Source: an uncultured Acidobacteriota bacterium (GTDB lineage Bacteria > Acidobacteriota > Vicinamibacteria > Vicinamibacterales > CAVVIG01). From it: 64,000 bases of DNA. A program made the position numbers and the translations under genes. Below the pieces are notes generated by a model. That model searched no databases. It had not been told where the DNA came from and saw only the letters and a program-made list of their open reading frames with translations. The DNA is taken from NCBI GenBank assembly GCA_963807925.1, contig CAWEDP010000002.1, positions 3,249,080-3,313,079 on the forward strand. Direction: 5' to 3'. Within the stretch, counting starts at the first letter, position 1. Every line of letters starts with the position of its first letter. Positions 27,976 through 32,027 of the stretch are shown here, piece after piece.

Positions 27976-28027
27976 TTGGTCGGGGCGAGAGGATTTGAAC
28001 CTCCGACCCCTCGGTCCCGAACCGAGT
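27976..28027 (-). repeat. Direct repeat copy 1: 3' 51 nt of tRNA-Pro(CGG) (position 26 to CCA) plus 1 nt; att-like
   Basis: Minus strand reads A-CTCGG-TTCGGGA-CCGAG-GGGTC-GGAGG-TTCAAAT-CCTCT-CGCCCCG-A-CCA. The flanking sequence provides no 5' acceptor strand or D-arm. Identical to 31976-32027. Confidence 0.8.
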
Positions 28028-28173
28028 GGCCCGACGCGGATTCTCGAATGATTTGGTGGCTTTTCGGGACCGGGTAGTAACCGGGTAGCGATTAGGCCAG
28101 CTCAATGACCGGGCTTCGCCGACGATCGCCGGTATCGATGATCGGCGACGTCTGGCGTAAAATGATCCCAGCG

Positions 28174-28413
28174 ATGAACTATCAAGACCGCATCGTCCGA
28201 GACCCTCAGATCGTTGGAGGCGAGCCGGTCCTGAAGGGGACGCGGGTGACGTTGAAGACTGTCCTCGCGAGTCTCGCCGAGGGCGCCACGACTGCTGAAA
28301 TTCTCGCCGACTTCCCTACGCTGGCTGACGAGGATGTCCGGGCCGCCATCGCGTTCGCTGCTGCCTCCGCTCAGGAGGATCTTCCGCTCGTCGAGACGCC
28401 CGTCAAACGGTGA
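28174..28413 (+). CDS. DUF433-family antitoxin-like protein
   Basis: 79 aa from the ATG at 28174. IVRDPQIVGGEPVLKGTRVTLKTVLASLAEGATTAEILADFPTL is a typical DUF433 sequence. 4-nt overlap with the next ORF. Confidence 0.8.
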   Translation: MNYQDRIVRDPQIVGGEPVLKGTRVTLKTVLASLAEGATTAEILADFPTLADEDVRAAIAFAAASAQEDLPLVETPVKR

Positions 28414-28784
28414 AGATCAAACTCGACGAGAACCTCCCTGAGCGTCTCATCCCCGCGCTCACGGCCCTTGGCCACGACATGGACACGGTTTATGTGGAGC
28501 GGCTGAACGGCCAGGCTGATCCGAATGTCTGGACGGCGACACAAGCGGCGCAGCGATTCTTCATCACTCAAGACCTGGATTTCTCGGACATCCGCCGGTA
28601 CACGCCGGGCACTCACGCTGGTCTCCTCCTTGTACGGCTGGCGCATCCCGGCCGCAACGCTCTGTTCGAGCGCGTCTCCAGCGTGTTTGAAACTGAGGAT
28701 GTCGAAGGCTGGGCCGGCTGCCTGGTGGTCGTGACGGACCGCAAAGTCCGCGTCAGACGACCCGCGCGACCAACTGAACACTGA
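28410..28784 (+). CDS. DUF5615-family (PIN-like) toxin-like protein
   Basis: 124 aa. MKIKLDENLPERLIPALTALGHD...FFITQDLDFSD is typical of the DUF5615/Mut7-C-like partners of DUF433. Confidence 0.8.
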   Translation: MKIKLDENLPERLIPALTALGHDMDTVYVERLNGQADPNVWTATQAAQRFFITQDLDFSDIRRYTPGTHAGLLLVRLAHPGRNALFERVSSVFETEDVEGWAGCLVVVTDRKVRVRRPARPTEH

Positions 28785-28825
28785 TCGGAGTCGATCCCAA
28801 GCGCGGTCCATCCTCGCGCTGGTCG

Positions 28826-31684
28826 TCAGTAACGACTTCCTCGCACGATGGTAAGCGGATGCATGGCGGCGCTTCGGCGCGAGCTCAACGAGCGGAGGAT
28901 CGCATCGAGCACCGCGTCCAGTTCCTTCGCAAAGTCCTCGGCGAGAAAACGCAGGACGAGATAGCTATTTTCTTGCAGGAGTTGATCTTTCTTTCGATCA
29001 CGCCGGTACGCGACTGGATCCGCGAGATGCTGCGCGCCGTCCACCTCAATCACCAGGCGCGAATCGACGCAGAATCGGTCGATTTCCATCTGTCCGCGAC
29101 CGTCGAACGCGATTGGCAGATCGGCATTAAGCTGAAATCGTCCACGCGTTTCAGGCAGCGTTTCCAGACGTCTGTAGAGGAAGGCTTCGGACGCGCTTCG
29201 CGCGCGATGTGCCCCTTCGCTATCAGGAGGGATCGGACGCGCAGCTGTGACAAACAGGTTTGCCAGCGGTGTGTCAACGCCGTCGCGCACGAGACGCCGC
29301 ACGCTGGTTGCATAGTCGCGTTTCCAGCTGGGATCGGCCGGCAACGTCACGTCGGCGGGCCAGCCCGGAATTGCGCTGGCAGGCACGACAATTGTGTAGC
29401 CGACGGCTTCGTAGCCGCGGCAGCGCCGATCGAACATGCGCGCCAGCATGGGCACGTTCAGGTCCGCGTAGTCGTGCACGCGGACTTCACGTTTGCCGTC
29501 GTACAGACGATGGAGCCGTCCGACGTACTGCGCGATCGTCCCGCGCCACGATACGGGCAGCGTCAGGAAGAGCGTGTCCAAGCGGGGGTCGTCGAATCCC
29601 TCTCCGATGTACTTGCCGGTTGCGAGGATGACGCGGCCCTCATCCGGGGGAATCGCCGTCAATCGGTCGGCCGCCGCCTGCCGCTGCTTCTTGCCCATTC
29701 CGCCGCGCAGCGTCACAACGTGAGCCACCTTCCCGGATAGCTCGCTCTCGAATCGGTCGAGGTGCTCATTGCGCTCTGTCAGTACGAGCGGCGATCGCCC
29801 CGCGTCGACCGCGTGCACGACCTCGTCGCAGATGCGTCGATTGCGCTGCTCGTTATCCACCAGCTCCTGGTAGAGCGCCTGGAATTCGACACGTTTGTCC
29901 GGGCCTGCTTCCTTCCCCGATCGAAATGCCGTCGGGCGAACGAGGACCGTGTGCTCGAACGGCCTCGCCCCAGCCTGCGCCCTCGCGTCGACGCGATGCC
30001 GAACCGGACCGCATTGCATGAAGATGATTGGATGGTGCCCATCCTTCCGCGTCACTGTCGCCGACAACCCGAGGACGAACCGCGCTTTCGCACGACGGAC
30101 GACCTGCTCGAAGCTGTGCGCCGACAGATGGTGACATTCGTCGACGATTACGTGCCCGTAGTTGGCGACGCAGTCATCCACGACGCCTTTGCGAACGAGG
30201 CTTTGAATCACGGCCACGTCGATGAGGCCTGTCGGCTTGTGTCGTCCGCCGCCGATTCGGCCAATCGATTTCGCAGGCACGTCCAGAAATGTCGAGAGCC
30301 GCTGGACCCATTGGTCGAGCAGCTGGCGGCGGTGCACCAGCACGAGCGTGTTGACGCCGCGCTGCGCGATCAGCCAGGCAGCAATGACCGTCTTGCCGAA
30401 GGCCGTCGTGGCGGCGAGGACGCCGGTGTCGTGGTTCAGCATCGTGTCCGCGGCGAGGCGCTGGTCCGCTCTTAGTTCCCCCTGAAACGCGACCTCCAGG
30501 CGGTGACCGGCGAAGCGTTCGTCGCGAACGATCGGCTGGACGTTCACGTCGGTCAGTACCTGACGAACGTCCTCGAGGCACCCGCGCGGAAGGCCGATGT
30601 GGTGAGCGTGATCCTCGGCGCAGGCGATAATGCGCGGCTTGTCGTACGTCGATAGCCGCATGGCTTGCGTTTTGTAGAACTCGGGGTTCTGGAACGCCGC
30701 AACCCGCAGCAGCCGATTTCGAAGCGCCGGCAGCAACGCGTCCTTGGCAACGTAGATCTCGTTACCGAGGACCAACTCGAGAGATCGAGGCAGGTCGCCA
30801 GCGATTGGCGGGGCCCTTCGACGCCGTGACGGCGGCGCTGTCCACGGCGTTCGCTCGTCCTCCTCGTCTGGCGGCAGCCTCACGCCGAGGATGCGCCCTC
30901 GTTGCTCGGCTTCGCGTACGACGCCCTCGACCTGTCCGCGTGGAATTCGCCGAAGGCTCGAGAGAAAAGCCCATTGATCTTCGTGGGGGACGCCGCGCTC
31001 ATCAAGGAAGACGCTGTTTCCATCTCCGCGTCGATGCTTCTGCAAGGGCAACGCGATCAGATTGCCGAATCCGCCGTGTGGCAACGTGTCTTGATTGGGA
31101 AAGAATCGATCGTACGAGTCGAGCCCGAGGTCCGGCCGGGCGTCCATCGTCTCGGTCAGAATGTACGAGCCCAGCTTCCGCGCGAGCCCAGCCGGCACCG
31201 CTTCCTCAAAAAACAGCCACACATGTGCGCCACGGCCAGAGCGTGACCGCTCCAGGGCCGCTGGCAGATCCATCCGCTGGGACGTCGCCATGAACGCCGT
31301 GGAATCCGCGAGCCAATCGCTCTTGTCGAAGTCGACGGCGAGGAAGAAGCACGTCTCATCGAGCAACATGGGATAGACGCCCGCGACAAACCGCTCGCCG
31401 GCGTCGTCGTGCCCCGAGAGATGCCACCGGATGACGTTGCTGGTGACCGGTAGGAATCGCCGGTGCGGACACTCCGCGCACTTGATGCGCGGCTTCTCGC
31501 AGATGCCGCGCACCCACTCGTTCGCGCATACCGGTGCGTAGCCGGACTTGCCCGTCTTGCGGCTCTCGAACCGTCGCGGGTACACGTCGTCGCGTCCGCG
31601 GAAGAGGGACCGGAAGAGCGCGATTTTCGCCTCAGGTGACGAGAGCTGATGAACGAGAGCCTGATTCTGGTGTAGTGAATCCAT
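28826..31684 (-). CDS. AEP (primase-polymerase) - DExH SF2 helicase - DUF559 endonuclease fusion protein, intact
   Basis: 952 aa from the ATG at 31684. AEP motifs LAVDFDK (DxD), SRSGRGAHVWLFF (sGxGxH) and DSYDRFFP..GFGNLIALPL. Cys cluster CANEW..C..KCAECPH. Helicase motifs TAFGKT, VIVDECHHL, LGLSAT and QYVGRLHR. C-terminal DUF559-like IDRFCVDSRLVIEVDGAQH..RDRKKDQLL..YLVLRF. Confidence 0.85.
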   Translation of the reverse strand: MDSLHQNQALVHQLSSPEAKIALFRSLFRGRDDVYPRRFESRKTGKSGYAPVCANEWVRGICEKPRIKCAECPHRRFLPVTSNVIRWHLSGHDDAGERFVAGVYPMLLDETCFFLAVDFDKSDWLADSTAFMATSQRMDLPAALERSRSGRGAHVWLFFEEAVPAGLARKLGSYILTETMDARPDLGLDSYDRFFPNQDTLPHGGFGNLIALPLQKHRRGDGNSVFLDERGVPHEDQWAFLSSLRRIPRGQVEGVVREAEQRGRILGVRLPPDEEDERTPWTAPPSRRRRAPPIAGDLPRSLELVLGNEIYVAKDALLPALRNRLLRVAAFQNPEFYKTQAMRLSTYDKPRIIACAEDHAHHIGLPRGCLEDVRQVLTDVNVQPIVRDERFAGHRLEVAFQGELRADQRLAADTMLNHDTGVLAATTAFGKTVIAAWLIAQRGVNTLVLVHRRQLLDQWVQRLSTFLDVPAKSIGRIGGGRHKPTGLIDVAVIQSLVRKGVVDDCVANYGHVIVDECHHLSAHSFEQVVRRAKARFVLGLSATVTRKDGHHPIIFMQCGPVRHRVDARAQAGARPFEHTVLVRPTAFRSGKEAGPDKRVEFQALYQELVDNEQRNRRICDEVVHAVDAGRSPLVLTERNEHLDRFESELSGKVAHVVTLRGGMGKKQRQAAADRLTAIPPDEGRVILATGKYIGEGFDDPRLDTLFLTLPVSWRGTIAQYVGRLHRLYDGKREVRVHDYADLNVPMLARMFDRRCRGYEAVGYTIVVPASAIPGWPADVTLPADPSWKRDYATSVRRLVRDGVDTPLANLFVTAARPIPPDSEGAHRARSASEAFLYRRLETLPETRGRFQLNADLPIAFDGRGQMEIDRFCVDSRLVIEVDGAQHLADPVAYRRDRKKDQLLQENSYLVLRFLAEDFAKELDAVLDAILRSLSSRRSAAMHPLTIVRGSRY

Positions 31685-31975
31685 CGGGCGTCGCTCGCCG
31701 AGGCGATGATGGCATCGTCGCGACAGGAGGATCAACTAACTCGTCATTCAGCATCGGATCAGGCGCGCTGGGGTAGCGTGCAGGGTAGTACTTTGCGGCG
31801 ACAAGTGCGAAGGATAAGGCGGACGCTGGCGGTCGCCGCGAGAAATCTCGAACAATTCCGCAGAAGCCGAGCGTTTGAAGCTCCGGTCACTCGGTTCTGG
31901 AGGCTCGAATTCTGCGCAAGAACCGAGTGACCAGCCAGACTGAATTGTGCGGTTTCTTGGGAAAATCAGAGAAGT

Positions 31976-32027
31976 TTGGTCGGGGCGAGAGGATTTGAAC
32001 CTCCGACCCCTCGGTCCCGAACCGAGT
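31976..32027 (-). repeat. Direct repeat copy 2: 3' 51 nt of tRNA-Pro(CGG) plus 1 nt; att-like
   Basis: 52/52 identical to 27976-28027, exactly 4000 bp away. The upstream flank (in tRNA sense) is again not tRNA-like. Weak extra similarity continues past the repeat (GAATG...TGGTGGCTT in both flanks). Confidence 0.8.

Follow-up and report, generated by a model that had tools for sequence, protein, structure and literature searches.

An integrase-less islet between att-type copies of the tRNA-Pro(CGG) 3' part in an uncultured Acidobacteriota bacterium

Here, we analyse a stretch of 64,000 nucleotides from an uncultured bacterium of the Vicinamibacterales (phylum Acidobacteriota; GenBank assembly GCA_963807925.1, contig CAWEDP010000002.1, positions 3,249,080 to 3,313,079 of the forward strand), called the window in its entirety, in which two identical 52-nt copies of the 3' part of a proline tRNA gene, tRNA-Pro(CGG), bracket a compact islet of three genes without an integrase.

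The locus and its genes

Read in the orientation of the tRNA, the locus runs from the repeat called copy A through a left arm of about 290 nt, a large gene for a predicted PrimPol-helicase-nuclease protein, a convergent toxin-antitoxin pair and a right arm of about 77 nt to the repeat called copy B, beyond which lies the downstream, or B', flank. In window coordinates the features are:

27876-27975, minus strand: flank on the downstream (B') side of the tRNA-Pro(CGG) site, shared by 12 metagenome contigs at 92-96% identity
27976-28027, minus strand: core copy B (attR-type), covering tRNA-Pro(CGG) position 26/27 through CCA and 1 nt beyond, without a 5' half
28028-28104, minus strand: right arm, with AAATCATTCGAGAAT at 28040-28054 and the TACCC pair TACCCGGTTACTACCC at 28072-28087, spanning the toxin-antitoxin promoter region
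28105-28413, plus strand: DUF433 gene, putative antitoxin (Pfam PF04255, E = 1.3e-20)
28410-28784, plus strand: DUF5615/PIN-like gene, putative toxin (Pfam PF18480, E = 3.1e-19; weak PIN_10 hit)
28826-31684, minus strand: PrimPol-helicase-nuclease gene, 952 amino acids, with predicted AEP-TOTE (residues 37-270), XPB/Rad25-like superfamily 2 (SF2) helicase (about 403-744) and DUF559/Vsr-like endonuclease (about 864-950) domains
31685-31975, minus strand: left arm, a module of about 290 nt with a hairpin, GTTCGAGATTT at about 31843-31856 and the TACCC pair TACCCTGCACGCTACCC at 31771-31787
31885-31932, minus strand: left-arm hairpin GGTCACTCGGTTC/GAACCGAGTGACC, a 13-bp stem formed by CACTCGGTTC and its complement (-16.7 kcal/mol, z = -3.4)
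31976-32027, minus strand: core copy A, in attL-type position and at an apparent internal junction of a tandem array

A Pfam scan bears out the gene content given in a preliminary description of this DNA, namely the DUF433/DUF5615 pair and the AEP-helicase-DUF559 gene and nothing else. All three genes are intact, and the islet has neither space for additional genes nor pseudogene debris. The two small genes are adjacent and co-oriented, overlap by 4 nt and belong to families that match a type II toxin-antitoxin pair, although the real start codon of the DUF433 gene may lie further downstream than annotated. Pfam assigns AEP-TOTE (E = 7.5e-95), ResIII/DEAD helicase and DUF559 domains to the large protein, which also matches the PADLOC profile of cas-associated PrimPol (E = 1e-87). 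Among solved structures, its helicase part matches XPB/Rad25 in sequence and its primase part the PrimPol chain of 7nqd, a CRISPR-associated PrimPol, and the motifs VDFD, SGRGAHVW, GKT and DECH are legible in the translation. The large gene most likely encodes a conflict or defence effector, and the putative toxin and antitoxin most likely stabilise the islet.

The 52-nt repeats

Positions 27976-28027 and 31976-32027 agree base for base, and a search of both strands of the window at up to 3 mismatches returns just these two matches, against 0.00 expected from 100 shuffles. The identity ends sharply, with G versus T at 27975/31975 and GG versus AC at 28028-9/32028-9; because the flanks differ, the repeat is not a piece of a larger segmental duplication. 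On the minus strand it reads ACTCGG-TTCGGGA-CCGAG GGGTC GGAGG-TTCAAAT-CCTCT CGCCCCG A CCA A, covering the anticodon arm (anticodon CGG), variable loop, T arm, 3' acceptor strand, discriminator and CCA of a tRNA-Pro(CGG), and 51-52 of its 52 bases equal those of intact tRNA-Pro(CGG) genes in related contigs.

Neither copy forms a functional tRNA. ARAGORN calls no tRNA in the entire window, and the 26-nt 5' half of the tRNA occurs nowhere in it at up to 3 mismatches; on its 5' side (tRNA orientation), copy B continues into the right arm of the islet, which matches the 5' half at 5/26 positions. An Rfam search of the window finds nothing at gathering score, and in E-value mode the two copies appear as sub-threshold tRNA hits of 23.6 and 22.5 bits (gathering score 29). 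Further low Rfam hits, including mir-250 and CRISPR-DR23, fall far under their own gathering scores and were set aside as noise. In the identity and uniqueness of the repeats, their extent from the anticodon arm to CCA on the minus strand and the lack of a functional tRNA-Pro at either copy, the preliminary description was correct.

The site in related contigs

Related Acidobacteriota/Vicinamibacterales contigs, labelled here with L numbers, present the same site in empty, filled, stacked and decayed states; querying metagenomes with the junction of copy B and the downstream flank returned 12 contigs. The empty site, a comparison that had been suggested at the outset, is seen in five of the relatives (L085, L087, L091, L092 and L093), where a single intact tRNA-Pro(CGG) gene is fused to the B' flank of the window, with the housekeeping gene surE lying upstream of the tRNA in L087. 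L086 resembles these contigs, but its tRNA is cut by the contig end.

The filled state is exemplified by L001, a Vicinamibacterales metagenome-assembled genome, in which an intact tRNA-Pro(CGG) gene lies 290 nt upstream of the large gene on the same strand (copy A in the window lies at 292 nt) and a 51-nt copy of the tRNA 3' part follows 3966 bp beyond it. Both islet ends of L001 can be aligned with those of the window, and the core boundary is identical. A full array is found in L104, where surE and an intact tRNA-Pro(CGG) are followed by a 9.4-kb compartment and then by the islet, which has one fragment on either side and is spaced at 3918; in L089 the islet is flanked by two fragments spaced at 3931, and L090 also carries it. 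At the position of copy A, an intact tRNA is present in L001 and L002 and a fragment in L006, L089, L102, L103 and L104. An intact tRNA at one end, absent in the window, is thus present in L001, with the same islet, and in the array of L104. Finally, in L082 the context found at window positions 32028-32343 meets the B' flank via a single core, with the islet absent, which is the product expected of core-by-core recombination.

The intact, empty, filled and stacked states together identify the repeats as attachment (att) cores of a site-specific integration site. The suggestion in the preliminary description that they are att-type blocks of an island which targets tRNA genes and is either decayed or mobilised in trans is supported by the empty sites and by L001, L104 and L082. 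Two of its lesser points fall away on the same comparisons: the spacing of exactly 4000 bp is a coincidence, given the spacings of the same islet in L001, L089 and L104, and the degenerate similarity past the repeats (GAATG..TGGTGGCTT) is a mere common 9-10-mer, unconserved in L001, to which we give no weight.

The cores are conserved beyond their surroundings. Across 13 non-functional fragments, identity to the tRNA amounts to 50-52/52, while islet DNA is about 23% divergent between the same contigs, and adjacent non-coding DNA is 30-35% divergent between contigs whose cores stay 96-100% conserved, suggesting that the core is either renewed or constrained.

Conserved arms and exchangeable cargo

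Both arms carry paired TACCC and TTCGAGA motifs. In the right arm, which is kept in L001, L089 (two copies), L090, L102 and L104 (two copies), the TACCC pair TACCCGGTTACTACCC lies about 42-61 nt and AAATCATTCGAGAAT 12-26 nt upstream of the core, and the TACCC pair holds a fixed distance to the core in 8 compartments with differing cargo, including a CBASS (cyclic oligonucleotide-based antiphage signalling system) compartment in L102. The left-arm module is conserved in L001 (three copies), L002, L081 and L089, and its TACCC pair TACCCTGCACGCTACCC lies about 90 nt upstream of the AEP start codon. The arrangement TACCC-N4-10-TACCC occurs 3 times in 64 kb, each time on the minus strand and no more than 250 nt from a core, against an expected 0.02, so that the GGGTA-containing short repeats noticed earlier near the cores are real and non-random. 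We regard the TACCC and TTCGAGA pairs as putative arm-type recombinase sites. Judging from an alignment by eye, the left-arm hairpin appears to be a tRNA-Pro 3' fragment that degenerated long ago and acquired an insertion of about 25 nt.

The content of the toxin-antitoxin slot changes from copy to copy with the arms unchanged: the DUF433/DUF5615 pairing recurs in L081, L102 and L103, and a ParE-like gene replaces it in L001, L002 and L089.

Upstream of the islet in L102 (3732-9535), a CBASS-like cluster (AAA, Cap8, bacHORMA, SMODS, SAVED) occupies a compartment that ends in a TACCC-bearing right arm.

Copy A as an array junction

Three further features lie on the far side of copy A:

32028-32053, minus strand: drifted remnant of a tRNA-Pro 5' half, 13/26 positions matching, including TCAGCC
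32054-32296, minus strand: spacer, or right end of the neighbouring compartment, 69% identical to L082, with the TACCC pair TACCCAAAACTGTACCC at 32231-32247
32297-32343, minus strand: 3' fragment of tRNA-Asn(GTT), anticodon loop through CCA, matching L082 at 47/47 positions

A score of 13/26 or higher against the tRNA-Pro 5' half is reached by 1.3% of window positions; the homologous stretch of L082 scores 15/26 (0.1%), and other fragments score 4-9/26. Copy A can thus be read as a tRNA-Pro copy whose 5' half has drifted and whose 52-nt core is still perfect, which would make it an internal junction of a tandem array rather than simply a truncated tRNA. The earlier view that the islet site has lost its tRNA 5' half holds insofar as no intact 5' half is present, and needs amending in that copy A appears to be an array junction with a drifted one. 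The tRNA identity at copy A stops at the same base as at copy B and at every fragment elsewhere. Random truncation or an insertion of the IS110 insertion sequence (IS) is unlikely, because the exact att base would need to have been hit by chance. Removal of the 5' half by IS110 was also considered directly and rejected, since the identity ends at the att boundary and the 5' half is not found beyond the IS; L082 likewise speaks against it, having the same boundary and no IS.

The tRNA-Asn(GTT) fragment, about 270 bp beyond copy A, was missed in the earlier inventory of the locus, which had the repeats and genes right. It aligns with the intact tRNA-Asn genes of L004 and L032 and is bordered on its 5' side by IS110 in the window versus MazF and an IS5-like element in L082, and it represents a second, different att-type core or boundary.

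Search for an integrase

No recombinase is found by Pfam among the three islet genes. An iterated tyrosine-recombinase profile, seeded with an integrase of the window and one of L019 and run on 93 loci plus the window, retrieved 7 open reading frames (ORFs) in total, none of them in or beside any tRNA-Pro islet, those of the window, L001 and L089 included. Likewise, no integrase lies within 10 kb of the islet in L001, L102, L103 or L104 (from precomputed Pfam lists for L102-L104), and tblastn with seven integrases detected no integrase pseudogene in or beside the window islet. The description of the islet as integrase-less therefore extends to every copy, none of which has a tyrosine recombinase within or next to it.

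In L019, which carries the same large gene, an intact integrase stands beside tRNA-Val in the first compartment, and the AEP compartment holds what we read as an integrase C-terminal remnant (HxFRHAF...VQELMxHAS...VYSQ, with an in-frame stop) between the AEP gene and a tRNA-Val fragment, a remnant that tblastn did not detect.

The window does encode a tyrosine integrase (7308-8612, minus strand), close to the tRNA-Val-linked integrase of L019 (E = 2e-87). Its candidacy as a helper is unsupported, as TACCC pairs, a tRNA and core-like sequence are all absent nearby.

Origin and mobility of the islet

That the repeats originated as att sites and that the islet is non-autonomous are conclusions we hold with high confidence. 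The fuller reading we favour, and consider quite likely, is that the 52-mers are att cores left by site-specific recombination in tRNA-Pro(CGG) and that the 3.95 kb between them constitute a compact, non-autonomous islet resembling a cis-mobilizable element (CIME). Under this reading, crossover would occur at or near the tRNA anticodon arm; the islet would enter as a circle, its attP composed of right arm, tRNA-like core and left arm, and could exit only by the same route. Catalysis would be supplied by a tyrosine-type integrase encoded elsewhere, on a helper island, a phage or another site of the genome, and this external integrase may bind the core together with the paired TACCC and TTCGAGA arm motifs. 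The islet would fill an internal slot of a tandem array, with copy A joining it to an older neighbouring compartment whose tRNA 5' half has drifted, and a functional tRNA-Pro(CGG), if the genome retains one, would lie outside the window. Evidence for mobility comes from the cores, which stay at 50-52/52 in the 13 non-functional fragments, from the occupancy of the site, which varies among contigs with a 92-96% identical flank, and from the arms, which are kept while cargo swaps. That the islet is mobilised in trans at the present day is possible, if somewhat doubtful.

Several observations weigh against the favoured reading. The perfect identity of the cores could derive from gene conversion with a real tRNA gene rather than from recent recombination. 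The left-arm TACCC pair falls within the AEP promoter region and is absent from the left end of the 9.4-kb compartment of L104, and it might serve as an operator instead of an arm site. In the B' flank only about 100-150 nt are conserved, which leaves host relatedness among the contigs uncalibrated, and mobile flanks could account for some of the apparent occupancy polymorphism. Neither a helper integrase nor an excised circle or attP-only contig came to light, IMG/VR does not contain the exact core, and no phage or satellite attP was found. None of the refuting observations listed at the outset was made outright, yet L002, L102 and L103 keep the gene content with the upstream core only, the downstream core being gone. 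This pattern points to decay in those lineages and leaves the att origin unrefuted, and it means that the islet persists also as an immobile relic.

The last point leads to the rival that survives best, in which the islet of the window is itself a dead and immobile relic of a larger, integrase-bearing island, its cores kept alike through recent insertion or gene conversion. The loss of the downstream core in these three contigs, the integrase remnant between the AEP gene and the tRNA-Val fragment of L019 and the failure to find a helper all fit such a relic. The islet, however, is free of pseudogene debris, its defined arms are conserved in at least five contigs with swapped cargo, occupancy differs among contigs sharing the 92-96% identical flank, and the cores are 96-100% conserved compared with about 65-70% in neighbouring non-coding DNA. 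We consider a dead relic possible but rather doubtful.

The PrimPol-helicase-nuclease family

The 952-amino-acid protein aligns over its full length with more than 8000 homologues at 62-93% identity, and the family maintains 62-83% identity over more than eight phyla, including Acidobacteriota, Planctomycetota, Verrucomicrobiota, Proteobacteria, Chloroflexota and Riflebacteria; it is rare in IMG/VR, where only 8 viral contigs encode a relative. In a set of 81 loci, hits to the tRNA T arm, whether from intact genes or from fragments, show a 4.8-fold enrichment within 1.2 kb of the gene over its farther flanks (P = 2e-8), and many metagenome contigs that bear the PrimPol/XPB/DUF559 gene measure just 3.3-4.5 kb. 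Integrase-less islets with the same gene, bounded by fragments of other tRNAs, occur at tRNA-Thr (L045, 4669 bp, with an additional YhcG/PDC-S02 nuclease), at tRNA-Ser (L005, 4474 bp) and at another tRNA-fragment core in L018 (7015 bp); several islets of this type have a third core copy, delimiting adjoining compartments that contain neither the large gene nor an integrase. A motif search across phyla found no conserved non-coding motif upstream of the gene, and a literature search on the PrimPol/XPB-helicase/DUF559 fusion returned nothing specific.

In L035 (12785-12861), the 3' end of the AEP ORF enters the 3' end of a convergent tRNA-Pro(GGG) gene, so that the C-terminus there consists of tRNA-derived codons.

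One could suppose that the large gene and its arms form a many-phyla family of minimal tRNA-targeting elements of 3.4-4.7 kb that never carry an integrase, which we regard as unlikely. Two versions are possible: the fusion protein might itself nick, prime and copy the element into tRNA genes, or the elements might be cassettes of an integron-like, tRNA-anchored array, shuffled by a recombinase encoded elsewhere. A related idea, that the PrimPol-helicase-nuclease protein is the mobility or replication engine of a minimal element of this kind and no integrase is needed, draws on the wide phyletic range at 62-83% identity, the tRNA enrichment, the integrase-less islets bounded by tRNA-Pro, -Thr and -Ser fragments and the short carrier contigs. 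Against it stand the adjoining integrase-less compartments that lack the gene (L045, L005, L018, L102 and L104), the absence of a non-coding end motif conserved upstream of the gene across phyla, core boundaries of the classic tyrosine-integrase type, the integrase remnant in the AEP compartment of L019 and a helicase that is XPB-like SF2 rather than of the replicative superfamily 3 (SF3) or DnaB type; we judge it very unlikely.

In a window so packed with IS elements (IS21 twice, IS110, IS3, ISL3 twice and an IS256 fragment), the repeat might be suspected to stem from segmental duplication, from homologous recombination or from duplication by an IS. Such an origin is nonetheless highly improbable, in that identity spans exactly 52 nt between unrelated flanks, the block coincides with tRNA position 26/27 to the 3' end, the boundary recurs in unrelated contigs, and 52 nt far exceeds any IS target duplication. 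Prospects are just as slim for the idea that the AEP system uses the tRNA 3' halves as functional RNAs, for example as CCA-ended primers, templates or decoys: the AEP gene does have copy A 292 nt upstream on its own strand, and an intact tRNA takes that place in L001 and L002, but many other lineages have the tRNA in convergent orientation to the gene or not at all, copy B lies downstream of the opposing toxin-antitoxin operon, and the same fragments bound compartments without an AEP gene. An assembly artefact is practically negligible as an explanation, for although 52-nt repeats can mislead short-read assemblers and L081 breaks inside the T loop, the core-islet-core order is the same in the independent assemblies L001, L089 and L104.

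Comparison with known systems

An att class at the anticodon loop is familiar from P4/lambda-type islands and prophages that target tRNA genes with tyrosine integrases. The islet shares with these classical elements a block running from the anticodon arm to the 3' end, an intact tRNA and an empty site in relatives, and paired direct-repeat motifs in the arms; it differs in lacking an integrase gene, and the window has no intact tRNA at either end.

Closer still are CIMEs, for which tandem accretion at tRNA genes is an established concept (Guedon et al. 2017, PMC5704250) and which are defined as decayed integrative and conjugative elements (ICEs) or integrative and mobilizable elements (IMEs) of Firmicutes (PMC5704250). 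Like them, the islet keeps attL-/attR-type cores, is without integration or transfer genes and stands in tandem at a tRNA 3' end. Unlike them, it shows no sign of conjugative ancestry, with no relaxase or conjugation remnants and an integrase remnant only in the distant L019 compartment. It is also unusually compact (3.95 kb), its arms are conserved, its genes are intact and its toxin-antitoxin slot is exchangeable, and its neighbours, too, are integrase-less.

Tandem elements flanked by partial tRNAs have been described as tycheposons (Hackl et al., bioRxiv 10.1101/2020.12.28.424599), which carry their own tyrosine or serine recombinase (bioRxiv 10.1101/2020.12.28.424599). With tycheposons and satellites resembling phage-inducible chromosomal islands (PICIs), the islet has in common the partial-tRNA flanks, the stacking at one tRNA, a primase/helicase-type gene with small cargo and degenerate remnants. 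It lacks a recombinase, however, and although a PrimPol and an SF2 helicase are present, their role in replication is putative and the XPB-like SF2 helicase with a Vsr-like nuclease would make an atypical replication module.

The N-terminal domain of the islet protein is the Pfam domain AEP-TOTE, named for conflict systems of TPR, OB, TBP and Effector components (TOTE, in a passage of PMC12458937 that cites them). The islet has no TPR, OB (cold-shock) or TBP partners, the only neighbours of the gene being DUF433 and DUF5615. The same domain matches the PrimPol chain and the PADLOC profile of CRISPR-associated PrimPol (CAPP; PDB 7nqd), whereas in the islet it is fused to an XPB-like helicase and DUF559 in one stand-alone gene. 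No cas genes occur among the scanned window ORFs, and no CRISPR array was detected.

Genomic surroundings

Beyond the tRNA-Asn fragment, the remaining 32 kb of the window are chromosome-like, riddled with IS elements and devoid of any intact tRNA. On the other side, directly beyond the B' flank, lie an IS256/Mutator transposase fragment (25694-26518) and a UvrD-like helicase ORF with partial domains (26086-27738). A large serine recombinase gene (18769-20859, minus strand; Resolvase, Recombinase and Zn_ribbon_recom domains) stands between two IS21 copies, whose istA genes (13554-15128 and 22633-24252) are preceded by 23-bp tandem repeats at 13378-13446 and 22426-22494, probably IS21 multiple terminal repeats. 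A P-type ATPase gene is interrupted by an IS3-family element (HAD part at 34458-35879, minus strand; E1-E2 part at 36858-37754, minus strand; IS3 orfAB at 35635-36945, plus strand). Positions 42308-42607, within an ISL3 transposase gene (42296-43567), are identical to 58849-59148, probably reflecting two ISL3 copies, and a 1540-bp tandem duplication at 55740-58327 resembles the DUF772 region of L102.

Significance

An att-bounded, integrase-less islet in a tRNA-anchored array is a concept known already, and in this respect the element is a fairly ordinary genomic islet. It nevertheless offers a clean natural case of defence-type genes travelling as stripped-down tRNA cassettes in soil Acidobacteriota, whose mobile elements are little studied, and the empty, filled, stacked and decayed states of one site are all visible in public data. 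Two aspects would go beyond the routine if confirmed, namely an islet family that is steadily integrase-less yet retains conserved, TACCC-paired arms, and the strong tRNA linkage of a very widespread PrimPol/XPB/Vsr gene. If a trans-acting integrase exists, the array would resemble an integron-like cassette system built on a tRNA anchor.

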